Notes: a model not told the origin generated them from the sequence alone. A stretch of DNA of 64,000 nt from Minisyncoccota bacterium (GCA_040879645.1 JBBDJY010000016.1:11064-75063); one strand, 5' to 3'. Counted from the stretch's first letter, positions 2,528-54,807 are shown. Translations and numbers: made by a program.

Positions 2528-2769
2528 AATTGATGATTCCAAAACCAAAACTGGCAAGGTGACACCTTGACAGTTTTGGTAGGGGGGATTTTTGTCCGGT
2601 TTCCACCGGCTTTTTTTGACCTTGACAAAACCATAAATATTTGCCAGTAATTGAATCAGACAACTTGGCCTTAGGCCCAGTTTTGACATAGGAATAAGCG
2701 AAACTTTTCGCGAAAATACACACACGGAACACGGACGAAAAAAGCCGATTTATCGGCAGGAGGTGAGTG

Positions 2770-4950
2770 ATGAAGAAGTTTATGGTGTTGTTTTTGGTGG
2801 TTGGACTGGCCGGTTTTCTGATCGGTTGTCCGCCCGCCGAGCGGACCGTCATCGTCGAGGGTTACCTTGACATCGACGGTTGCGATCAGGCGACTCTCGG
2901 GGCCGAAATCATTCGGCCGGAGTTTCCGGCCGAGGCAACCTTTGACCTCTACAAAGGTGACCGGTCCTCCATGCGTCCTTGGGCGCGGGTGGCTTACAAG
3001 GCCGGCGAAGACGTTGAAATCTACGAAGCGACGGCCGTTGACGGTCAGAAGCTTTTTCTTCAACGCCATGTGATGCTCTGGAACGGACAGTGGTATTACA
3101 CCACTCACCGGTCATTTCCTCATCAGCCGATCTATGTGATCGGTCGGCCGGTGATTGGCCGGGTGGATTATGATGTCAGTACTTTGGTCCGGGCCGTTCT
3201 CTTTGTCGGAATTTTGTCTCATTTAGGCAATATCGGCGATGGTGACGGTGCGGATGCGCCTTGGTTTGCCTTACCTGATCGCAGTAGTGATTGGGAATTG
3301 CCGGCCTTTGCTCTGTTTCGGATTACTGATCCGGCACCGGCCAGTTACCAAATTGTGGCCAGAGTGCCGGGCTGGGAGGCCGGAACGACCGAACGATTTA
3401 CCGGCATTGTCGGCAATCCTCATGGTTGTCCGCCACCGGGACCGGAAACGGTATTCGTGCCGGACACCAGTAACTTGCCGGAAGACGAAGCGGTGGACTT
3501 GGTCAACAGTTTCGACTTGATAGTCGGAACGATTACCCGGGTTTGCAGCGATACCGTCGCTACCGGTCGGGTGATTCGTTCCGTTCCGCCAGCCGGGGCT
3601 TCGGTACCGGTGGGGACGATCATTGACTTGGTTGTTTCCAGTGGGCCGTGTCCGCCAATAAATGTCACCGTTCCCGATTTTACCGGTGGAACGGAAGACG
3701 ATGCTCGTGATCGTCTTGACGACTTAGGTTTTGACGTCTCGGTGACCCGTGTTTGTAGCGACACCGTCGCTGTCGGCCGAGTCACCAGTCAAGATCCCTC
3801 AGCTGGGACTTCGGTACCGGTGGGGACGATCATTAACTTGGTGGTCTCGGATGGGCCGTGTACTTTGCCCAACTTGACGCTTGAGCTTGGTCTCAACCAG
3901 ACTGAATTTCAGGTTGGTGACACGGCGATTTTGACGGTCGAATGGTCCGGTAGTGGTACGCCGTTTGATTTTACGGCAACCTTCCCGGATGCGGTCGGCG
4001 TGGCTGGTCGGGTCTTTGAAAATGGCCTGATCGAGTTCTCGGTTTTGCCCGAGTCGGCTGATTCGTCGGTAGAACTTTTTACCGATGGCCTTGGTCACTT
4101 GGAGATTCACCGACGGTTGTCTTCGGATACCGGTGGCGAATCTTTGCCGATTTTGGTCCGGGTGATTGGGGTTGATGATCAGGAGGTGACGCGGGAAATT
4201 TTCCTGCGTGTCAATCGGCCTGATGTCACTGTTCCTGACTTTGGGGGCCGGACCGAGGACGAGGCTCGTGATGTGTTGGAAGGCTTGGGCCTTGGTGTAT
4301 CGGTGACCCGTGTGTGTAGCGACACTGTCGCTACCGGCCGGGTCATCAGTCAAGACCCTCCAGCCGGGACTTCGGTACCGGCGGGGACAATCATTAACTT
4401 GGTGGTCTCGAGCGGGCCGTGTGCGCCGGTAGAAATGCCGGTGCCGAATATTGTTGGCTTGCCCGAAGCCGAAGCGCGGTCGGCGATTGCTGATGCCGGC
4501 TTGAACCTCGGTGCGATTACTGAGGTCTATCATCCGACAATGACCGCCGGCCGGGTAACTTCTTCCAATCCGGTGGCCGGGACAATTGTACCACCCGGAT
4601 CAGCGGTTGATTTTTCGGTCTCACTCGGACCGGAACCTCCGCCGACCTTGAGTCTTTTGCTTGAGGTTTTGAATTCGACCAATCGTGTTTTTACGGTTGG
4701 TGACATTGTTGCTGTTCGGGCAACGATACTGGGTGGTCAGTCGGGATTCGAAGTCCGGATTGCTTGGCCGAACGCGACGCTCAATTCGTCGACCGGCCAG
4801 GCGCGAGTCTTTGACTTTGCCCAAGTGGCGACCAGTGCCACCTACTCGTCTGGAGCTGAGCCAATCTTTTTGCCCGTTCGCGGGCGAGTAATTGATTCGG
4901 CCGGAGCGGTGGCTGATGCGGAAGTGTTTATCCGCATTAACCCGAATTAG
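2770..4950 (+). CDS. Lipoprotein with at least four tandem PASTA-like domains (repeat unit VPDFTGGTEDDARDRLDDLGFDVSVTRVCSDTVAVGRV..SVPVGTIINLVVSxGPC)
   Basis: RBS GGAGG 7 nt upstream of ATG 2770; lipobox LIGC; repeated PASTA-like modules in translation. Confidence 0.7.
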   Translation: MKKFMVLFLVVGLAGFLIGCPPAERTVIVEGYLDIDGCDQATLGAEIIRPEFPAEATFDLYKGDRSSMRPWARVAYKAGEDVEIYEATAVDGQKLFLQRHVMLWNGQWYYTTHRSFPHQPIYVIGRPVIGRVDYDVSTLVRAVLFVGILSHLGNIGDGDGADAPWFALPDRSSDWELPAFALFRITDPAPASYQIVARVPGWEAGTTERFTGIVGNPHGCPPPGPETVFVPDTSNLPEDEAVDLVNSFDLIVGTITRVCSDTVATGRVIRSVPPAGASVPVGTIIDLVVSSGPCPPINVTVPDFTGGTEDDARDRLDDLGFDVSVTRVCSDTVAVGRVTSQDPSAGTSVPVGTIINLVVSDGPCTLPNLTLELGLNQTEFQVGDTAILTVEWSGSGTPFDFTATFPDAVGVAGRVFENGLIEFSVLPESADSSVELFTDGLGHLEIHRRLSSDTGGESLPILVRVIGVDDQEVTREIFLRVNRPDVTVPDFGGRTEDEARDVLEGLGLGVSVTRVCSDTVATGRVISQDPPAGTSVPAGTIINLVVSSGPCAPVEMPVPNIVGLPEAEARSAIADAGLNLGAITEVYHPTMTAGRVTSSNPVAGTIVPPGSAVDFSVSLGPEPPPTLSLLLEVLNSTNRVFTVGDIVAVRATILGGQSGFEVRIAWPNATLNSSTGQARVFDFAQVATSATYSSGAEPIFLPVRGRVIDSAGAVADAEVFIRINPN

Positions 4951-4955
4951 AATTA

Positions 4956-5134
4956 GTCGAGGTTGAACCTCGACCAATGTTTGTACCCCCGAAGCCAACG
5001 GCTTCGGGGGTTTTCTTTTTTCAAATCGAGATGGGCCGGTCTTTAAAGCTTTAGTCGAGGTTGAACCTCAATACCGAGGTTTAACCTCGTTATTGAACCT
5101 CGTTATTGAGTGTTGGTCGAGGTTGAACCTCGAC
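4956..5134. repeat. REP cluster: GTCGAGGTTGAACCTCGAC and ATACCGAGGTTTAACCTCGGTAT palindromes (at least four copies)
   Basis: Perfect and near-perfect 19-23-bp palindromes read directly; same family at 6969-7093, 13257-13322, 13711-13809, 34630-34648 and 35337-35398. Confidence 0.85.
4985..5020 (+). terminator. Rho-independent terminator (cccccgaagccaacggcttcggggg followed by T-run)
   Basis: GC-rich hairpin plus T-tract directly after the PASTA gene stop. Confidence 0.6.
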
Positions 5135-5262
5135 TAATGCTACGGCTGATTTAATTCCTTGCATATTTTTTATATTCGTGGTAGTAATGGTTAAATTATC
5201 CTTGGACCGTAAACGGCCGGGAAAAGGGCGAAATTAGAAATTTATCAATAAGGAGAATAATT

Positions 5263-5913
5263 ATGAAGAAAATAAACAAAATAGCAGTCATTTTGACCTT
5301 GGCGATCTTGGTTTTGGTACCGGTTTTGGCTTTGGCGCAAACGGCGCTTAATGTCGCCATTACGGCACCGGCGGACGGAACGGAAGTTGTTGTCGGGCAG
5401 AGTGTAAACTTTACCGGTACGGCAACCGGTGGCGATTCTTCAAGTTACCAATTTAATTGGACTTGGGGTGATGGCACCGAAACCAGTTCAGGTAATAACA
5501 ATGGGGCAACCCAGACGACTCATACCTTTAGCACCATTGGGGCTAAAACAGTAGAATTGCGGGCCATTGACTTGAATACCAATTCGGGCACCAAGACGAT
5601 TACCGTCAATGTTGTTACCGGTGAGCCGGCCCTGGTTATTTCCAATGTGCGAGTTGAGGCGGCTGATATAACAGCCAATAGCGCGATTGTTCGTTGGACG
5701 ACTAATAAGCCGGCCACCAGTCGGGTTATTTACGACACGGTTTCTCGGGCCGGAGCCTTGAATATGAATTTGGCTCCAAATTATGGTTACGCTCATTTCA
5801 CCGGGACGGTAAATACCAGCCCAATGGTTACCGAGCATGCCGTTACCGTTTCCGGTTTGTCAGCTTCCACTCAGTACTTTTTCCGAGCGATTTCGGAAGT
5901 CCCGGCCAATTAA
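5263..5913 (+). CDS. Secreted protein with PKD-like (WTWGDGT) and fibronectin-III/PAP-N-like modules (hypothetical)
   Basis: RBS AAGGAGA; signal peptide; PKD signature NWTWGDG; beta-sandwich-like C-terminal segment. Confidence 0.6.
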   Translation: MKKINKIAVILTLAILVLVPVLALAQTALNVAITAPADGTEVVVGQSVNFTGTATGGDSSSYQFNWTWGDGTETSSGNNNGATQTTHTFSTIGAKTVELRAIDLNTNSGTKTITVNVVTGEPALVISNVRVEAADITANSAIVRWTTNKPATSRVIYDTVSRAGALNMNLAPNYGYAHFTGTVNTSPMVTEHAVTVSGLSASTQYFFRAISEVPAN

Positions 5914-6927: not shown

Positions 6928-6968
6928 CTAATGCCAGGCGGATCTTGGTGGCTTGCCTCCTGGAGTCA

Positions 6969-7093
6969 ATACCGAGGTTTAACCTCGGTATTGACGTTAT
7001 ATTTAGCCACGATAACGAGGTTAAACCTCGGTATTGAGTATTAGTCGAGGTTGAACCTCGACCTAGTCATTAATCGAGGTTAAACCTCAATCA
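6969..7093. repeat. REP cluster (four palindromes of the GAGGTT-AACCTC family)
   Basis: Direct reading; intergenic between murB and gatB. Confidence 0.85.
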
Positions 7094-13700: not shown

Positions 13701-13710
13701 TGGTATTCTA

Positions 13711-13809
13711 ATACCGAGGTTAAACCTCGGTATTATGGCTTAAAACAACGCTTATACCGAGGTTAAACCTCGGTATTATCTTTTTTTTGGCCCGAGGTTT
13801 AACCTCGGG
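13711..13809. repeat. REP doublet plus a third variant palindrome (cccgaggtttaacctcggg)
   Basis: Direct reading. Confidence 0.85.
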
Positions 13810-13826
13810 CCAAGTCAAAAAAGGTT

Positions 13827-17546: not shown

Positions 17547-17921
17547 CGGTTGGACAGAATATGGAAACTGTCCTGCTCTAGTTATTACCCACCAATATCC
17601 AAGAGTCTTGTTCTTGATTGATATTGGTTTTGTGCGTGGGGTTCCTGTAAAGGAAGTCGTCTTTCGCTCAAGCACAATAAGAGCGATTGACCAAGCCGTT
17701 GCCGACAACAAGACTACGACAACGGCCATTGATTTAATTATATCTCACTCGCTGTCAATTTCAAGGGCTTTTATTAGACTTCTGGTTTTTTCATTTCCGG
17801 CCCCGAACCTCCGTCTTTGACCGGCACAAATACCACAAGCGATTTTAGAATGTTTTCTTTTTCGTTTGTAGTTCATTTAATAATTGTAAAAGAAAATGCC
17901 TACCGTTGCCAATAGTAAATG

Positions 17922-17946
17922 TTATCAAACACCGGGTGTTTGATAA
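17922..17946. repeat. Left flanking palindrome TTATCAAACACCGGGTGTTTGATAA of the RAYT at 17925-18596
   Basis: Perfect palindrome; near-identical copy at 18626-18650. Confidence 0.8.
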
Positions 17947-18596
17947 TCTTCTTTAGCGCCACTGGTTTCAACCCATTTTTTATAACTTTGGCCGGGGTTT
18001 GGCCCGTCCATTTGGTCCATGATTATTTTGGGTTTAAGTAATTCGCCCCAACGATTTTCATTGGTGTAGTCGCTAAAACTTGACCAACGATATTCTGTTT
18101 CTCGATTATTATAGTCAATCTCCCTTGCGTTTAAGTGGACGTAGGCCGAAGCATAAAGTAATTGCTCATTGTCTTTAATGTGAACAGCGCGAAAAGGTCC
18201 TTGAAAAAGGTGTCCAGATTGTTGATATCTGGTATTGAAATACTTGGTATAACCGTTAAGAATCTTTTGCATGTAGGTGGAAACTCCGTTATCCACATTT
18301 GATTGGACAATCAAATGAAAATGGTTCGGCATCAAACAAAAGGCGATCAATGTCACTAGACGATTTTCGATGAGGGTTTCAATGTCTTGATGGTTAAAGC
18401 CGAAATTGTTTTCTTTTATAAATTTTTTTGCATGCGATCCGATATTATTGATACTGCGGGCTGATTGTAAATGAAGAATATACAATAAAAATCTGGCACG
18501 ATCTAAGTCATCTTTAAAGATATCGCATTTAAGGTTTCCTCGGTTAACTAAGTGAAAATATTCACCGGCGACAAAAGGAGTTTTTCGATAAGTCAT
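17925..18596 (-). CDS. REP-associated tyrosine transposase (RAYT; IS200/IS605 TnpA-like HUH Y1 transposase)
   Basis: HUH motif NHFHLIVQ, C-terminal RWSSFSDY tyrosine region, N-terminal YHLVNRG motif. Confidence 0.8.
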   Translation of the reverse strand: MTYRKTPFVAGEYFHLVNRGNLKCDIFKDDLDRARFLLYILHLQSARSINNIGSHAKKFIKENNFGFNHQDIETLIENRLVTLIAFCLMPNHFHLIVQSNVDNGVSTYMQKILNGYTKYFNTRYQQSGHLFQGPFRAVHIKDNEQLLYASAYVHLNAREIDYNNRETEYRWSSFSDYTNENRWGELLKPKIIMDQMDGPNPGQSYKKWVETSGAKEDYQTPGV

Positions 18597-18625: not shown

Positions 18626-18650
18626 TTATCAAACACCCGGTGTTTGATAA
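18626..18650. repeat. Right flanking palindrome TTATCAAACACCCGGTGTTTGATAA of the RAYT
   Basis: Direct reading. Confidence 0.8.
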
Positions 18651-18742
18651 CAAGTTTATAAACATATGAGACTCTGTAATTAAGAATTCATATGTGTCAA
18701 AATCATTGACTTTTGGTTGTTTTTGGCTATACTGCATTTGTT

Positions 18743-23592: not shown

Positions 23593-23985
23593 ATGCAATC
23601 AACACTGCTCATTGCAGGAATAATATCGTTTATCATCGCCGGAGCGATTGTCGGCTGGCGATTGATTGAAATTCGCCGGGGAGCGGTTTTTCCCCGTCAA
23701 CCGGCCCTCTGGCCGATGATTGACCACTGGCTTGATGTTTTGGCTTTCTTTATCGTGACTGGCAGTAAAAGTTTATTGAAACAATCTTATCTTATTCTCC
23801 TTATTGCCGGTGAAAAATTGATTAAATTATTCAAGTATTTGATTTTGCGGGTGGAGCGGCGCTTTACCCGGGTCGTTAATCAAGTCAAAGGCCGGCATGA
23901 TATTTCCAAACGGGGTTCGGCCTCACTTTTCTTGCGCGAAATTAAAAGACATCAAGAAAATTGGCAAAATGGCAACGGTGCTTAA
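23593..23985 (+). CDS. Small membrane protein (hypothetical)
   Basis: ORF from 23548 overlapping tsf; likely ATG 23593; two predicted TM helices. Confidence 0.45.
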   Translation: MQSTLLIAGIISFIIAGAIVGWRLIEIRRGAVFPRQPALWPMIDHWLDVLAFFIVTGSKSLLKQSYLILLIAGEKLIKLFKYLILRVERRFTRVVNQVKGRHDISKRGSASLFLREIKRHQENWQNGNGA

Positions 23986-24003
23986 GATTTGTTTAGACAC
24001 TAA

Positions 24004-24076
24004 GCCAGCATAGCTCAGTTGGTAGAGCAACGGTTTTGTAAACCGTAGGTCGTGGGTTCGAATCCCTCTGCTGGCT
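24004..24076 (+). tRNA. tRNA-Thr (anticodon TGT)
   Basis: Cloverleaf read by eye: acceptor GCCAGCA/TGCTGGC, D-arm GCTC..GAGC, anticodon stem ACGGT/ACCGT with loop TTTGTAA, T-arm GTGGGTTCGAATCCC; no encoded CCA. Confidence 0.8.
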
Positions 24077-24530
24077 CACAAACAAAGAGCCGAAAGCGGA
24101 TGCTTTCGGCGATTATTGTTTGTGCCAGTAGAGGGATGAGAACGGCGGAGCGCGCGAAGCCGACCGAGTGGTAACGAGGTCGAGCGCGAGCCGTGTCCCG
24201 CGGCACTTCATATTTTGTGAGTGGAATGAAACAAAATATGTTAGTGACCGTCAGGACGAATCCCCAGCTTCCTCACAAACAAAGAGCCGAAAGCGGATGC
24301 TTTCGGCGATTATTGTTTGTGCCAGTAGAGGGATGAGAACGGCGGAGCGCGCGAAGCCGACCGAGTGGTAACGAGGTCGAGCGCGAGCCGTGTCCCGCGG
24401 CACTTCATATTTTGTGAGTGGAATGAAACAAAATATGTTAGTGACCGTCAGGACGAATCCCCAGCTTCCTCACAAACAAAGAGCCCTCGGCGGATGCTTT
24501 CGGCGATTATTGTTTGCCCACGGACTGGAA
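24077..24530 (+). repeat. Tandem direct repeat: two complete 197-bp units plus a partial third immediately 3' of tRNA-Thr; each unit ends in a degenerate copy of the tRNA 3' end (pseudo-att)
   Basis: Units start at 24077, 24274 and 24471 (period 197); the ORFs at 24168..24371 and 24365..24568 are artefacts of this repeat. Confidence 0.85.
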
Positions 24531-25607
24531 AAAGTCAGAATCTGTTACTGGTCTCGATTCTATCATAAAATCATTCCATTTCATGCTAAAATGAGTAGAT
24601 GAAGAAAAATAATATTATCATCTATCAAGCTAAATCAGGTGCTCTTGAGTTCAAGAGTGATTTGAAAGAAGATACTATTTGGGCATCACAAATCCAAATA
24701 GCCGAGGCTTTTAAGGTAAATGTTCGTACAGTAAACGAACATATAATAAACATTTACAAAACAAAAGAACTATTTAAGAAAGGAACTATCCGGAAATTCC
24801 GGATAGTTCAAAAAGAAGGAAACAGAGAAATTTCTCGTGATATCCAGCACTATAACTTAGACATTATTTTGTCAGTTGGATATAGAGTTAACTCAAAAAA
24901 AGCAACTAAGTTTAGGCAATGGGCCACCAAAACCCTTAAAGACCATTTAGTTAAAGGATATACGATAAATCGAAAAAGAATCGATAAAAACTATCTTGAG
25001 TTTTTAAGATCAGTCGAAGAAGTTAAAAAACTTCTTCCCCAAGGGAATACCCTGTCAACAAAAGATACCTTGGAGCTAATCAAATTCTTTGCCGGCACTT
25101 GGCTTTCTCTGGAGGCCTACGATAAATCAACATTTTCTAAACAGGGCCTAACTAAAAAACAAGTCAAAATCACAGCCGATGAATTGGAGAACGCTATTGT
25201 CGATTTACGGCATAATCTAATCTCACAAAAAGAAACGACGGACATCTTTGCTCAAGAAAAATCAACCGGTTCCATTGCTGGCATTGTGGGGAATGTATTC
25301 CAAGGTTTTAATGGTAAAAACCTCTATCCAACCGTAGAAGAAAAGGCCGCCCATCTTTTATATTTTATAGTCAAAAACCACCCCTTTATTGATGGAAACA
25401 AGCGAAGTGGAGCTTTTGCTTTTGTTTGGTTTTTGAACAAAGCCGGTATTTTAAATAGAGATAGTTTTACTCCCGAAGCATTAACGGCTTTAACAATTTT
25501 AGTGGCTGAGAGTAATCCGAGTGATAAAGAAAAAGTTGTTGGTTTGATTTTGAATTTATTAAGGTGATTTAACTTTTTATTCAATCCCAAATGATTGCCC
25601 CATTCTG
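24521..25607 (+). mobile_element. tRNA-Thr-associated islet bounded by about 45-bp direct repeats (24471-24520 and 25608-25650, both with the ccctcggcggatgctttcggc variant), carrying only a RhuM-Fic/Doc gene
   Basis: Direct repeats read directly; AT-rich cargo; no integrase present. Confidence 0.55.
24599..25567 (+). CDS. RhuM-family virulence-like protein fused to a C-terminal Fic/Doc domain (HPFIDGNKRSG motif)
   Basis: N-terminal RhuM-like pattern (IIYQ..NLDIILSVGYRVNSKKATKFRQWAT); C-terminal Fic/Doc motif HxFx(D)GNKR. Confidence 0.7.
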   Translation: MKKNNIIIYQAKSGALEFKSDLKEDTIWASQIQIAEAFKVNVRTVNEHIINIYKTKELFKKGTIRKFRIVQKEGNREISRDIQHYNLDIILSVGYRVNSKKATKFRQWATKTLKDHLVKGYTINRKRIDKNYLEFLRSVEEVKKLLPQGNTLSTKDTLELIKFFAGTWLSLEAYDKSTFSKQGLTKKQVKITADELENAIVDLRHNLISQKETTDIFAQEKSTGSIAGIVGNVFQGFNGKNLYPTVEEKAAHLLYFIVKNHPFIDGNKRSGAFAFVWFLNKAGILNRDSFTPEALTALTILVAESNPSDKEKVVGLILNLLR

Positions 25608-25654
25608 AATCTTCAGCTTCCTCACAAACAAAAGCCCTCGGCGGATGCTTTCGG

Positions 25655-26035
25655 CTACTTTTTATTTAAGTCAATCAGTTTTTTCAAATCCAGATCAATG
25701 TCCCCGGTTGAATCCAAATGCCGAGGGAAAAGGCTGTCATTAACAATATCATCACTACCCTGTGGTAAAACAAATACATTGCCACTTTCTGGATATTTAC
25801 CAAAAACAATTTTTAATCCCTCTGCTTGAAACCGAGTAATGAGTTCGTCTATCGGGGTTCCGTATCCGGGCAGTTCTTCTTGTTCCGCCTTTATTATTTC
25901 ATATGAATTTGGGTCGATACCGGGAAAAGGAAAATTTTCCTGATTTTCCGCCATTAGTTTTTCGACAAGTAAAATATATTCTTGTTTTCGTCGCTCTTTT
26001 TCCTGTTCAGGTGATGGGTTGGGAAATGATTCCAT
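25655..26035 (-). CDS. Hypothetical protein (126 aa)
   Basis: ORF only; adjacent to the islet boundary repeat. Confidence 0.4.
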   Translation of the reverse strand: MESFPNPSPEQEKERRKQEYILLVEKLMAENQENFPFPGIDPNSYEIIKAEQEELPGYGTPIDELITRFQAEGLKIVFGKYPESGNVFVLPQGSDDIVNDSLFPRHLDSTGDIDLDLKKLIDLNKK

Positions 26036-26154: not shown

Positions 26155-26982
26155 ATGATAGACAAAGCCGAACAACCGTCAAAATTGGGTCATCTTCATC
26201 CGAATAGTCAGATTATTTACGAGGTCTATGACTTAATGCGTCAGCTTGGCTTTAGTGTCGCTCTGGGGCCGGAAGTGGAAACCGAATTCTATAATTTTGA
26301 CGCTTTAAATATTCCACCGGATCATCCGGCTCGGGATATGCAGGATACTTTTTGGCTTAAGGCTCCGCCCGGTCTGCCCGGTCGGGCAGGCCCGTCCGAC
26401 CAAGCAGACCGGCCTGATGACCGTCTCTTGCGGACCCATACCAGTCCGGTCCAGATTCGCTATATGCAAGAGCATCAGCCGCCGTTTCGGATTATTGCGC
26501 CGGGGAGGGTTTTTCGTAATGAAGCGACCGATGCCACCCACGAAGCCCAGTTCCACCAGGTGGAAGGCTTAATGGTTGATCGGGATGTTTCTTTAAGTCA
26601 CTTGAAGGGGACATTAGAGTTTTTACTCAAAGGGTTGTTTGGTGATGATGTCCGTTTGCGCTTGCGTCCGAGTTTCTTTTCTTTTGTTGAGCCGGGTTTG
26701 GAAGTGGATATTTCTTGTTTTCGTTGCGGCGGACGGGCCCGCCCGGATGACTCGGTCGGACGGGCCCGTCATTGTATCTTATGCAAACAAACCGGCTGGA
26801 TAGAGGTTTTGGGTGCCGGCTTGGTCCATCCCAATGTTCTCTCGGCTGGGGGGTTAGACCCGAATGAGTGGCGCGGTTTTGCCTTTGGGGTCGGTGTTGA
26901 CCGCTTATCAATGCTTCGTTACGGCGTGGATGATGTCCGCTTGTTTTATGCCGGCGATATTCGTTTTATCAATCAATTTTAA
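26155..26982 (+). CDS. pheS: Phenylalanine--tRNA ligase alpha subunit, N-terminally truncated form, with two in-frame GC-rich palindromic insertions
   Basis: FNFDALNIPPDHPARDMQDTFW..LLRTHTSPVQ motifs; starts at the position equivalent to about residue 100 of canonical PheS; -10 box TATAAT upstream. Confidence 0.85.
   Translation: MIDKAEQPSKLGHLHPNSQIIYEVYDLMRQLGFSVALGPEVETEFYNFDALNIPPDHPARDMQDTFWLKAPPGLPGRAGPSDQADRPDDRLLRTHTSPVQIRYMQEHQPPFRIIAPGRVFRNEATDATHEAQFHQVEGLMVDRDVSLSHLKGTLEFLLKGLFGDDVRLRLRPSFFSFVEPGLEVDISCFRCGGRARPDDSVGRARHCILCKQTGWIEVLGAGLVHPNVLSAGGLDPNEWRGFAFGVGVDRLSMLRYGVDDVRLFYAGDIRFINQF
26371..26410. repeat. GC-rich palindromic element copy E3 (nested palindrome ggtctgcccggtcgggcaggcccgtccgaccaagcagacc) in frame in pheS
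   Basis: Inserts about 15 aa (PPGLPGRAGPSDQADRPDDR) between the conserved DTFW and LLRTHTS motifs. Confidence 0.7.
26728..26770. repeat. GC-rich palindromic element copy E4 (reverse-orientation match to the gatB copy) in frame in pheS
   Basis: Reverse complement GGCCCGTCCGACCGAGTCATCCGGGCGGGCCCGTCCGCC is about 95% identical to 8154-8190; inserts RARPDDSVGRAR into the CFxCGG..CxxCK zinc-knuckle region. Confidence 0.8.
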
Positions 26983-34583: not shown

Positions 34584-34629
34584 AGGCCAATAATAGCAAG
34601 ATTTTTTGCTTTAGCCAAAGGGTGTTCTT

Positions 34630-34648
34630 AGTCGAGGTTGAACCTCGA
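34630..34648. repeat. REP palindrome GTCGAGGTTGAACCTCGAC upstream of the RAYT
   Basis: Direct reading. Confidence 0.85.
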
Positions 34649-34676
34649 CTAAGAAGTTATTATAATTTAACATAAC

Positions 34677-35423
34677 ATGAGCCGAAATTTTTCTTTCTCT
34701 ATTGATGAGTTCTATCACCTGTATAATCGTGGTAACGATAAGAGGGATATTTTTCTTGATTATCTAGATAGGGAGAGATTTTTAAAATTACTCTATCTTT
34801 GTAATGGTAAAAATGAATTTCATATTCAAAAAATTCTTGACGAGGAACTTTTTTATTTTAATCGAGGTGAGTCTATCGTTGATATTGGAGCTTATTGTTT
34901 GATGGATAATCATTATCATTTATTGGTTAAAGAAAAGATGGAAAATGGCATCAGTCTTTTTATGCAACGATTATCAACGGCATATTCTATGTATTTTAAT
35001 AAAAAACACGATAGAACAGGCGCTTTGTTTGCCGGTCGTTTTAAGGCCAAACATCTTGATGACGATGACTATTTAAAGTATATTTTTGCTTATATTCATT
35101 TAAATCCGATTAAAATAGTTGATGATTTTAGTTGGAAATCCGGAATAGTAAATGATCTGGAAAAGATTAAAAAACATTTGAGCGATTATCGTTATTCGAG
35201 TTACCAAGATTATCTGGAGATCAATCGAGCAGAAACAAGAATCCTGAATAAAGAATCCTTTCCGGAATATTTTGATGATGTTGAAGATTTTAAAAATTAT
35301 CTAGATGATTGGATCAATTACCGAAGAGAAGAATTAGTCGAGGTTGAACCTCGACCAACAAAGGGTCATTCAATCAACAGTCGAGGTTCAACCTCGACTA
35401 GAGTTCTTTCGCTGATTCGATAA
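34677..35423 (+). CDS. REP-associated tyrosine transposase (RAYT), second copy; its 3' end runs into a REP doublet
   Basis: HUH motif NHYHLLVKE; YRYSSYQDY tyrosine region; N-terminal YHLYNRG. Confidence 0.8.
35337..35398. repeat. REP doublet (GTCGAGGTTGAACCTCGAC ... GTCGAGGTTCAACCTCGAC) overlapping the RAYT 3' end and containing the dnaE stop codon
   Basis: Direct reading. Confidence 0.85.
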
Positions 35424-40526: not shown

Positions 40527-40528
40527 TT

Positions 40529-40551
40529 TTGTCAAGGTGACACCTTGACAA
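40529..40551. promoter_or_regulatory. 23-bp palindrome TTGTCAAGGTGACACCTTGACAA
   Basis: Perfect copy of the motif family, between rnhB and rpmF. Confidence 0.5.
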
Positions 40552-40654
40552 AAGATTGGTTATTTTTAACGGTCGAGATGTCAATCCAATGCTTTCCTTG
40601 AAGTGTCCCTAAAAAGTATTGCCAATTATTCGTTTTTCGGCTATAGTACTCTTT

Positions 40655-52642: not shown

Positions 52643-53359
52643 ATGGCTACTTCCAAGTCGTTGCGGGAAAAAAGAAAAAAGATGGGCTTGTCACAAACAG
52701 AGTTGGCCGGTCTTTTAGGGGTGTCTCGACCAACGCTCGCCAAAATAGAAAAAAACGAAAGACCGTTAAATAAAGTTGAGACAGAAAAACTCAAAGACAT
52801 TTTTGAGTCGTTTGAGCTTGATCATCAGACACAAGGCGACATAAGAATCAATATCCCGGCCGGAAATATCAATAAGTTTAAACAAGTTTTATTATATATT
52901 TTGGAAAAAGTCGGTGCCAAACCGAATGTGGGCATGACGGTAGTGTACAAACTTCTGTATTTTATTGACTTTAACTACTACGAGAAATATGAGACCCAGT
53001 TAATGGGGCTTACTTATTTTAAAAATACTCATGGACCGACACCGCGCGAATTCAAAAAAGTGGTTGACGAAATGAAAAAATCAGGTGAATTGGTGGAGGT
53101 GGGGTCAAAATCCTTTGCTTATGATCAGAAAAAATTTTTACCTCGGCTTAAGTCCGATTTATCAGTTATTTCCGGTCAAGAGCTTGAAGTTATTGATAAT
53201 GTCTTAGACAAATATGCCGATCGGACAGCTAAACAGTTATCTCTTATGACTCATCGTGATATGCCTTGGAAGGCCACCAAACATGGCGAGAACCTTGATT
53301 ATGAACTGGCTTTTTATCGGCCGGATGAATTCTCTGTTCGGGAATATGAAGAATTGTAA
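52643..53359 (+). CDS. HTH (XRE-family) plus Panacea/DUF4065-like antitoxin (PanA/SocA-like)
   Basis: N-terminal HTH LSQTELAGLLGVSRPTLAKIEKN; C-terminal KLLYFIDFNYY..G.TYFKNTHGP Panacea-like pattern. Confidence 0.65.
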   Translation: MATSKSLREKRKKMGLSQTELAGLLGVSRPTLAKIEKNERPLNKVETEKLKDIFESFELDHQTQGDIRINIPAGNINKFKQVLLYILEKVGAKPNVGMTVVYKLLYFIDFNYYEKYETQLMGLTYFKNTHGPTPREFKKVVDEMKKSGELVEVGSKSFAYDQKKFLPRLKSDLSVISGQELEVIDNVLDKYADRTAKQLSLMTHRDMPWKATKHGENLDYELAFYRPDEFSVREYEEL

Positions 53360-54523: not shown

Positions 54524-54603
54524 CCCCGTGATTTCCTTTTGGAAACCACGGGCTTTTTGTTTGTCTGTTTGAGCCGGAATTTGTCAAGGTGACACCTTGA
54601 CAA
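54524..54603. promoter_or_regulatory. Conserved intergenic module copy 3: terminator hairpin + GGCTTTTTGTTTGT.. + full palindrome TTGTCAAGGTGACACCTTGACAA (54581-54603)
   Basis: Direct reading. Confidence 0.6.
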
Positions 54604-54807
54604 ATTGGATGGGGTGGACGAGTGCAAAAATTTGACAAATATTCGTCCTTACGCTACACTGGTTCCACAACGGCAAGATTGAGTTATGGTTGGGCCGGTT
54701 TAAGTATCTTGCTAAATCTCTCCATTTGATTTGCGACACGCCTTCAATCTCAATTGAAGGGGACAATTTTTGTTTTTATTATCGGCGATTTTAATAATTC
54801 AATTATT

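Follow-up and report, generated by a model that had tools for sequence, protein, structure and literature searches.

What are the tandem repeats that stand directly behind a threonine transfer RNA (tRNA) gene in the genome of a Minisyncoccota bacterium, and what brought them there? The stretch of DNA analyzed here (64,000 nucleotides, GCA_040879645.1 JBBDJY010000016.1:11064–75063; referred to below as the window) carries, between tRNA-Thr(TGT) and pheS, two full 197-bp units, a partial third copy, a gene encoding a RhuM–Fic/Doc protein, and a fourth partial copy of the repeat. In an earlier reading of this sequence (the original prediction), the units were taken for decayed scars of repeated site-specific integration and excision and the Fic gene for the cargo of an island without an integrase, whereas a structured non-coding RNA was named as an alternative. 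Our analysis places the 197-bp unit, with high confidence, in a real and widespread family of structured, protein-less elements of ~150–200 nt. The element is probably a selfish, tRNA-mimicking passenger of tRNA loci that spreads by recombination.

An element family with arms matched to the adjacent tRNA

A motif combining the hairpin P2 with RGCGGA (CAAGCMAACTGCTTKGCTT-N10-22-RGCGGA) was present in at least 120 metagenome contigs, and a covariance model (R1), built from 26 copies with the window excluded, identified 130 copies in 100 contigs. R1 matched both full units of the window (22.8 bits and E = 6.5e-5 each, model positions 38–141, + strand only), scores that are weak in comparison with the 50–144 bits of canonical members; over the whole 64-kb window it gave no further significant match, the one other match having an E-value of 0.78. 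Among 88 loci anchored on pheS, R1 was significant only in the candidate-phyla (CPR-type) loci L044, L072, L073, L084, and L085, always on the strand of the gene, and the single additional match, which was not significant (E = 0.18), lay in a Bacillaceae locus.

Members of the family share one anatomy, in which the 3′ portion of the tRNA gene (T0) is followed first by a short spacer, which in many cases forms a terminator-like hairpin, and then by a 5′ arm (T′), a core, and a 3′ arm (T1). T′ is the Watson–Crick complement of the 3′ strands of the acceptor and T stems of the local tRNA, and in most members it is split at the acceptor/T-stem junction by the very conserved hairpin P2. It is followed by the motif UCGAAC or GAGAAC and then by RGCGGAR; the core is three-way, with a helix P3 closed by RGC:GCY and a long P4, and T1 repeats the tRNA from the T loop to a few nucleotides beyond the discriminator. 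In L072, L084, and L085, for example, a spacer comes directly after the locus's own tRNA-Thr, and next to it the 3′ end of this tRNA recurs in inverted form, interrupted by the hairpin CAAGCMAACTGCTTKGCTTG (P2). The elements then continue with GAAM-RGCGGA, variable hairpins, and GAGCY; in L084 and L085, the tRNA end of the locus is also repeated exactly in direct orientation. The window copies carry the core motifs GAACGGCGGAGC ... GAGCC (GAAC-RGCGGAR ... GAGCY in the family), and their P3 and P4 fold, but the P2 hairpin GCAAGCMAACUGCUUKGCUUGC is absent and the arm is contiguous. As P2-less forms also occur at other tRNAs (tRNA-Lys in L104, tRNA-Ser in L108, and tRNA-Pro in L150), the window copy was filed as a P2-less variant. 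Its closest relatives, L141 and L206, have the blocks GCGAGCYGTGTCCCGCGGCACTT and TAGTGACCGTCAGGACGA in common with it, and TAGTGACCGTCAGGACGA is identical in L141 at 18/18 positions.

In many Patescibacteria, the element stands immediately 3′ of tRNA and tmRNA genes. A tRNA or tmRNA (transfer-messenger RNA) gene lies at most 150 nt upstream on the same strand in 78 of the 130 copies, mostly 15–45 nt away; a further 12 copies follow another copy, and 14 are located at contig edges. Among the copies with enough upstream sequence, ~80% stand behind a tRNA, a tmRNA, or another copy, always on the same strand, and 17 kinds of tRNA as well as tmRNA are represented among the hosts. Furthermore, the arms match the particular tRNA beside which they lie. 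At a threshold of at least 8/9 complementary positions, the 5′ arm paired with its cognate tRNA in 36/78 cases, compared with 0/390 non-cognate controls. The T-stem complement (at least 6/7) was found in 64/78 cognate and 45/390 non-cognate comparisons, and the direct copy on the 3′ side (at least 12/14) in 43/74 and 0/370, respectively. P2 is placed exactly between the acceptor-strand complement and the T-stem-strand complement, and the complementarity of the 5′ arm to the tRNA 3′ strand is genuine, extending over the discriminator and trailer nucleotides.

In the window, T′ begins 46 nt past tRNA-Thr on the + strand. The 5′ arm of the first unit (TGCCAGTAGAGGGATGAGAAC, 24123–24143) agrees with the reverse complement of T0 at 17/20 positions, and the 3′ arm (GAATCCCCAGCTTCCTCA, 24258–24275) appears to repeat the end of the tRNA gene in direct orientation and degenerate form, with 14/19 positions matching when one gap is allowed. 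The original prediction had recognized this degenerate copy, which holds from CGAATCC onward, whereas the GGAC of "GGACGAATCC..." is not derived from the tRNA: it belongs to a conserved core block, GTGACCGTCAGGACGA, which is identical at 18/18 positions in the unrelated contig L141. The inverted copy at 24123–24143 had been overlooked.

Other origins of the arms were considered and rejected. The 5′ arm does not reproduce the tRNA 5′ strand, given that the window reads GAGGG where the 5′ T-stem strand of the tRNA reads GTGGG and that arms span the discriminator and, in L072, CCA. Templating from the mature tRNA was discarded on the basis of L091 and L115, where the gene has no encoded CCA and the arm has no TGG. 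Similarly, the 3′ copy is not templated from the 5′ arm, as in L160 it equals the tRNA exactly and the 5′ arm has three to four mismatches.

With the gathering scores of Rfam 15, the window region and 16 related loci returned only tRNA, and when the window and a canonical copy were searched at E-values of up to 10, the other hits had E > 0.01 and scores far below gathering. The exception was Plastid-ycf2 (E = 3.5e-6, 36 of 65.7 bits), a hit that reflects the tRNA itself in antisense. No description of the element family was found in the open-access literature, in which the nearest topic is the group I introns of Patescibacteria tRNA genes; the published ones are of the anticodon-loop type and lie at position 35/36. 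Like group I introns, which are abundant in Patescibacteria tRNA loci, the element has a structured core and a 5′ guide that pairs with upstream sequence and covaries with the insertion site; unlike them, it stands after an intact tRNA, and the upstream segment is duplicated downstream. A group I intron was rejected, there being no Rfam intron match and the upstream tRNA being complete.

Fold and covariation

The consensus fold consists of a closing stem (P1a, P2, and P1b) around a junction with P3 and the long P4. An alignment of 104 diverse copies with MAFFT and RNAalifold was too gappy to fold, and a model-based alignment was used instead. In the model-based alignment of 130 copies, paired cells accounted for 89.9%, compared with 65.1% after shuffling and 32–47% when the partners were slid; the covariation score was 0.506 versus 0.155, and changes on both sides occurred in 41/42 pairs. 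RNAalifold on a MAFFT alignment recovered the RGC:GCY helix (G-C 11, A-U 9) and an A-U/C-G switch in P2. The covariance analysis that had been proposed with the original prediction found a conserved, covarying, multi-helix core, and the alternative named there, a structured non-coding RNA, comes close to these data.

In the window, the 197-bp unit folds well on each strand (z = -5.4 and -6.7), and the hairpin formed by T0 and T′, with ~30 bp and a predicted -57.7 kcal/mol, is stronger than the fold of the tRNA itself. Tests of the strand gave a mixed picture. An excess of G-U over A-C (185 vs. 99) was confined to the alignment that had been fitted to the model; an unbiased stem finder counted 8 and 6, and among the mismatches of the T0:T′ arms the numbers were 24 and 19. 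The only strand test to favor the tRNA strand was the comparison of purine–purine with pyrimidine–pyrimidine mismatches (40 vs. 13), which was made with the unbiased stem finder.

A tmRNA, including the two-piece form, was also considered for the element, which has GGAUUCG-like and T-arm-like segments, and was rejected because ARAGORN made no call there and the acceptor strands do not pair. The conserved hairpin was likewise rejected as a tmRNA tag frame (SKQTALLA*), as the frame is not conserved and L072 has no stop codon.

The tandem array in the window

The array begins at an intact tRNA-Thr(TGT) at 24004–24077 on the + strand (ARAGORN; Rfam RF00005, 74.7 bits), whose 3′ portion from T-loop G53 to the discriminator plus CA (T0, 24056–24078) is mirrored by the arms of the element. 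Tandem Repeats Finder reported a period of 197 with 2.3 copies at 24059–24516 (score 858), and the two full units, at 24078–24274 and 24275–24471, are identical at 197/197 positions, which indicates a recent tandem duplication. In the first unit, the spacer (24079–24122) reads CAAACAAAGA-GCCGAAAGC-GGAT-GCTTTCGGC-GATTATTGTTTG; with its stem–loop at 24089–24110, it is terminator-like on both strands and extends the T0:T′ palindrome. T′ follows, ending in the GAGAAC variant of the family, and the core (24133–24264) is composed of GAAC-GGCGGAGC, the P3 hairpin, GAGCCGTGTCCCGCGGCAC, an AU-rich hairpin, and TAGTGACCGTCAGGACGA, leading into T1. The second unit repeats this layout, with T′ at 24320–24340, the model match at 24330–24461, and T1 at 24455–24472. 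The third copy consists only of the tRNA-like end and the spacer (24473–24516), and the array breaks at 24517, where T′ would start. The fourth partial copy (25607–25655), between the convergent Fic and ORF126 genes (ORF, open reading frame), is composed of a T1-like segment, GAATCTTCAGCTTCCTCA, and the spacer, followed by a run of T. All elements of this description that the original prediction had given, namely the tRNA, the two full units and partial third, and a fourth partial copy sharing the private variant GCCCTCGGCGGATGCTTTCGGC with the third, were borne out. The spacers of the third and fourth copies have the variant GCCCTCGGC in place of the GCCGAAAGC of the full units, and the 19-mer CAGCTTCCTCACAAACAAA occurs four times in the window, compared with 0.02 expected.

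How many copies the array really has is uncertain, as it is an exact 197-bp repeat in a short-read metagenome-assembled genome; in an independent Logan assembly of this sample, the sequence is interrupted at 24040 and continues from 24456. When strain variants of the locus were sought by exact protein sequence, the only records retrieved were fragments from that sample, likewise interrupted at the repeat. A direct repeat of ~52 bp flanks the Fic segment; it corresponds to the element's own degenerate T1 and spacer, not to the real tRNA end. A 12-nt exact direct copy of the real tRNA-Thr 3′ end, AATCCCTCTGCT, was observed at 25815–25826 inside ORF126; it is the only exact match to the tRNA end, and ~0.5 would be expected by chance in 64 kb. 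The spacer hairpin occurs in two forms that differ in a 4-nt block, one at 24089–24110 and 24286–24307 and the other at 24483–24504 and 25634–25655; the GAAA block gives a perfect 9-bp stem and the CTCG block a 4 × 4 internal loop, and the change looks like the templated correction of an imperfect palindrome.

Mobility and the search for an enzyme

Several observations bear on whether the element moves. Behind tRNAs for Val, Tyr, Asp, and Arg, cores that are 92–95% identical are combined with arms and spacers that bear no relation to one another. Copies from a single contig resemble one another little (median column identity, 24%), which rules out concerted evolution within a genome as the source of the identical cores. 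Elements are present or absent at the tRNA-Thr/pheS site among relatives, tandem arrays occur elsewhere (L084, L089, L107, and L158), and truncated copies are common. When the ORFs neighboring ~120 loci were clustered, no integrase, reverse transcriptase, or transposase was recurrent, and only SmpB, which belongs with tmRNA, recurred. In the window, no tyrosine or serine recombinase domain was identified in the 23 ORFs scanned, the rest of the genome not having been searched, and the gap contains only the Fic gene and ORF126. Near-identical cores with differing arms and no recurrent enzyme indicate that either the element or its core moves, and does so in trans.

These data bear directly on the idea of an attachment-site array left by repeated events of a tyrosine or serine integrase, with Fic as cargo. 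Islands with a tyrosine integrase have the T-loop sublocation within tRNA and tmRNA genes as their target, and a repeat from the T loop to the tRNA end is the classic identity block of T-loop-targeting integrases; it is this block that the direct repeats of the element span. Moreover, tRNA and tmRNA genes are the classic targets of islands, the tRNA-Thr/pheS gap is a hot spot, and Fic is flanked by the 52-bp repeats. The element therefore resembles T-loop-targeting integrative elements in its target in the 3′ part of the gene, its direct repeat, the intact tRNA, and its tandem accretion. In contrast with such islands, however, it is only ~170 nt long, has no integrase in or near its copies, carries the target in inverted form together with a covarying multi-helix core, and places one core family behind at least 17 kinds of tRNA. 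The units are identical to one another and not decayed, their conservation and covariation extend across more than 100 unrelated loci, and no copy of the tRNA end is present beyond the cargo of L084 and L085. The cognate integrase whose search had been suggested appeared neither in the window nor recurrently beside the other loci, and two scans of 2.9 million viral contigs with the unit and family motifs gave 0 matches. Decayed integration scars are thus very unlikely, and this interpretation may be regarded as largely refuted.

A proposed mechanism and its alternatives

The tRNA-mimic reading that we favor would make the element a passenger of tRNA loci that is non-autonomous and either selfish or semi-domesticated. 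Its RNA would be produced by read-through from the tRNA promoter; in the window, a sigma-70-like consensus match just 5′ of the tRNA (TTGGCA-16-TAAGAT, 23961–23988, + strand) could drive a tRNA-plus-element transcript. On the tRNA strand, the two arms would pair to imitate the stack of acceptor and T stems in the neighboring tRNA, with pairing of the 5′ arm to the real tRNA end across the spacer as the alternative. The tRNA-like closing stem may give the RNA defined ends and stability through tRNA-processing enzymes. In this predicted acceptor-on-T-stem stem, the element would resemble tRNA-like RNAs (viral 3′ tRNA-like structures, mascRNA, YrlA, and the tRNA-like domain of tmRNA), its hairpin projecting from the point at which the D and anticodon arms extend from a tRNA, a geometry that RNase P, RNase Z, and the CCA-adding enzyme recognize. 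Unlike in those RNAs, the stem sequence is copied from the neighboring tRNA, and the T loop is replaced by a core of ~100 nt. Spread or replacement would occur at the DNA level by recombination, with the tRNA-end repeat and the conserved boundaries of the core as homology, and recombination at these boundaries would explain the near-identical cores behind different tRNAs. In the window, unequal crossing-over between repeats of the tRNA-end copy plus spacer probably duplicated the unit, and the Fic segment may have been inserted or duplicated through the homology of the 52-bp repeat, Fic and ORF126 being unrelated accessory genes that would have accumulated in the gap.

Several points weigh against this mechanism. 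The shuffle control overstates significance because the alignment is model-fitted and the sequences are related. The strand tests are weak, and folded single-stranded DNA would give identical covariation. The transcribed strand, the read-through, and the processing are all steps that we infer, and the spacer, terminator-like on both strands, might end transcription before the element. The predicted fold of tRNA, spacer, and T′ sacrifices the acceptor and T arms of the tRNA, which would be costly if the tRNA and the element are co-transcribed. In the window, the two arms have ceased to match each other, so that the tRNA-like closing stem has only ~10 interrupted pairs. Nor does the mechanism account for the match of the 5–7-nt T-stem complement, which lies between two conserved modules, to each new tRNA. 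Finally, the family is apparently undescribed only within the reach of Rfam 15 and the open-access literature.

A bolder reading, which we regard as possible but rather doubtful, is that of a new class of mobile element without protein that would be directed by host enzymes to the region 3′ of any tRNA or tmRNA gene. Its arms, an internal antisense guide and a terminal copy of the target, would be rewritten for each tRNA by a templated process, and in its folded form it would imitate the stacked acceptor and T stems of the host tRNA. If true, a natural re-targetable insertion system or tRNA mimic would be present in at least a third of the tRNA genes of some Patescibacteria.

Alternatively, the arms and P2 could be features of DNA, and the element a hairpin of single-stranded DNA moved in trans by a host recombinase. 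The folded strand would rebuild a duplex copy of the target, like the attP(+) hairpin of CTX phage or the attC sites of integrons; in a variant of this reading, an IS200/RAYT-type Y1 HUH transposase would bind P2, be guided by the arms, and cut after T0 and T1 ("peel and paste"). The right end would carry the target sequence, and new insertions after any T copy would build arrays. The layout agrees with this in many respects: two inverted target copies ~100 nt apart lie within flanking direct repeats of the target, strand specificity is strict, tandem arrays occur without protein in cis, P2 forms a perfect 9-4-9 palindrome and is conserved in sequence as well as in pairing, and the arm mismatches show no preference for G-U. 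As in attP(+) and attC, inverted arms form a foldable mimic of the duplex target, the structure of the arms is conserved above their sequence, arrays arise, and a host enzyme may act in trans. Each of those sites, however, imitates a single constant target (dif or attI) for XerCD or IntI, whereas the arms of the element copy the adjacent tRNA, its loop has a branched structure that is conserved, and no enzyme of this kind is assigned to it.

The same comparison can be made with IS200/IS605 elements and with REP/BIME sequences (RAYT, Y1 HUH), which the element resembles in being small, hairpin-rich, protein-less, and strand-specific with an enzyme encoded elsewhere; IS200/IS605 elements also insert 3′ of a specific sequence recognized by an internal complementary guide beside a hairpin. 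The window encodes two IS200-like Y1_Tnp proteins (PF01797; 17925–18596, − strand, and 34677–35423, + strand) that are 38% identical to each other, and L102 encodes a homologue of them. One of the genes is flanked on both sides by ATCAAACACCSGGTGTTTGAT and the other is preceded by TTCTTAGTCGAGGTT-G-AACCTCGACTAAGAA, so that with their own palindromic repeats (17921–17948, 18626–18652, and 34625–34655) they resemble REPtrons. These palindromes, however, are unrelated to any sequence of the element; P2 is missing from the window copies, and Y1 genes are not enriched near elements. Known IS200/IS605 guides have 4–5 nt and REPs ~35 nt, compared with tRNA-specific arms of ~20 nt in the element. The branched, covarying core helices, the conserved single-stranded motifs, and the G-A mismatches are more RNA-like, and the change of the arms with the target is likewise left unaccounted for. 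For these reasons, we consider a single-stranded DNA element unlikely.

Another possibility is that the element is not mobile at all and is a vertically inherited 3′ trailer RNA that serves the host by controlling 3′-end processing, termination, or the level of the tRNA through pairing with its 3′ half, or as a decoy for tRNA-end-binding factors; similar cores behind different tRNAs would then reflect core exchange between long-resident copies. The very high occupancy would fit such a role: 75 of 131 tRNA/tmRNA genes on the sampled contigs carry the element, and 11 more carry related types. This figure is inflated, however, because the contigs were chosen for the motif, and the true share, although more than half here, is lower. 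Persistence at the tRNA-Thr/pheS site in the window, L084, and L085, with the spacer motif AACAAAG in common, points in the same direction, as do the 5′ arm of the window, which tracks the real tRNA (17/20) whereas the 3′ copy has drifted, and the more frequent retention, in general, of complementarity to the upstream tRNA than of the downstream copy. On the other hand, the element is missing from the site in the close relatives L083 (PheS 73% identical) and L086, one tRNA holds different subtypes across lineages and one subtype holds many tRNAs, and tandem arrays, truncated copies, and a co-resident second family suggest selfish accumulation. A purely host-serving RNA thus appears improbable.

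The element shares single traits with each known system and fails a defining feature of each, and its design, a folded core between antisense and sense copies of the adjacent tRNA, is not known to us from any other system. If no description of the family exists, as Rfam 15 and the searchable literature imply, the element ranks among the most abundant non-coding features of Patescibacteria genomes. It raises the question of how ~20 nt of target-specific arms are installed beside near-identical cores, and further questions as to whether it acts as RNA or as single-stranded DNA, whether it uses tRNA-processing enzymes, and whether it affects tRNA supply in organisms with minimal genomes. In practical terms, such elements break short-read assemblies at tRNA loci, and because they imitate attachment-site repeats, tRNA-linked "islands" in such genomes may be misread.

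Genes of the tRNA-Thr/pheS gap

The order L31, RF1, S2, EF-Ts, a small membrane protein, tRNA-Thr, pheS, and pheT is conserved around the locus, with pheS (26155–26982, + strand) as the right border of the variable gap. No PheS of the GTDB species representatives was more than 57% identical to that of the window. The comparison with relatives that had been suggested with the original prediction showed sites that are empty and sites with differing cargo: pheS lies within ~100 nt of tRNA-Thr in L007, L008, L040, L066, L083, and L086, whereas the gap is filled in L009, L024, L072, L084, and L085. In other genomes, it holds 1.2–4.8 kb of unrelated cargo, such as a glycosyltransferase with a thioredoxin-like gene, a 155-aa ORF, or a diversity-generating retroelement. 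The gap being empty in some relatives and filled in others, it is an insertion hot spot. In L085, the diversity-generating retroelement (bAvd and reverse transcriptase, 2594–5819) stands directly after one full and one partial element. In L024, a direct copy of the tRNA-Thr 3′ end (4662–4735) lies ~65 nt past the tRNA, split by a 49-nt hairpin-rich insert, and R1 gave no match there.

In the window, the first gap gene (24599–25567, + strand) encodes a protein of 322 aa with a RhuM N-terminus (PF13310) and a Fic domain (PF02661, E = 2e-12), whose HPFIDGNKRSG is a Fic motif of the HxFx(D/E)GNGR type; this part of the original prediction was correct. Its role as integrase-less island cargo was not upheld, given that it is a common stand-alone gene of Patescibacteria, with thousands of homologues there. 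Its GC content in the window is low, as befits accessory cargo. The homologues traced occupy unrelated gene neighborhoods, unlinked to tRNA-Thr or the element, and R1 run on two such loci gave no match. The second gap gene, ORF126 (25655–26035, − strand), encodes a conserved hypothetical Paceibacteria protein without a match in Pfam; its 33 homologues (41–65% identity) are located elsewhere in other genomes and, in the genomes traced, are unlinked to tRNA-Thr or the element. The AT-rich segment described as bracketed by the third and fourth copies does enclose the Fic gene, although the tract itself extends past the fourth copy to ~26150 and takes in ORF126. Both genes are common Patescibacteria accessory genes and are not part of the element.

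The placement of tandem repeats with a terminator-like hairpin directly 5′ of a Fic/Doc gene without an antitoxin gene beside it recalls type III toxin–antitoxin systems, in which the repeats would act as RNA antitoxin. The distribution of the element contradicts this: more than 130 copies have no Fic gene nearby, and Fic homologues are found without the element. Moreover, Fic is not an endoribonuclease, and the units have 197 nt, not ~36 nt. An RNA antitoxin is thus extremely improbable.

Additional elements and repeats

A second element family with the arm layout of the first (antisense arm, hairpin, antisense arm, core, and tRNA-end copy) is often found in the same arrays. It is characterized by the hairpin AAAGYGCUGGGAGCRCUUU and the core ..GGTACTGAnnnCTGTAAGnnnCGA.. 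and occurs in L084 (5013–5137) and 3′ of tRNA-Leu in L097 (4019–4103, − strand) and L126 (5170–5252, − strand) and of tRNA-Ser in L108 (3456–3543), L175 (7098–7185, − strand), and L179 (10629–10714). An extra small hairpin module, GCGTACTCGCGG or ATGTACTCATGG, lies just 5′ of the 3′ arm in L092, L106, L110, L172, L175, and L195.

The window also contains two dispersed families of perfect palindromes, ..CCGAGGTT-N-AACCTCGG.. and TTTTGTCAAGGTG-N-CACCTTGACAAAA, which are REP-like intergenic repeats (6965–6995, 13709–13735, 13742–13788, 13787–13813, and 34625–34655; 2501–2531, 40527–40553, and 54578–54606). The former resembles a tRNA T arm with a shortened loop. Farther downstream, at 52643–53359, lies a gene with a helix-turn-helix and a SocA/Panacea antitoxin-like domain.

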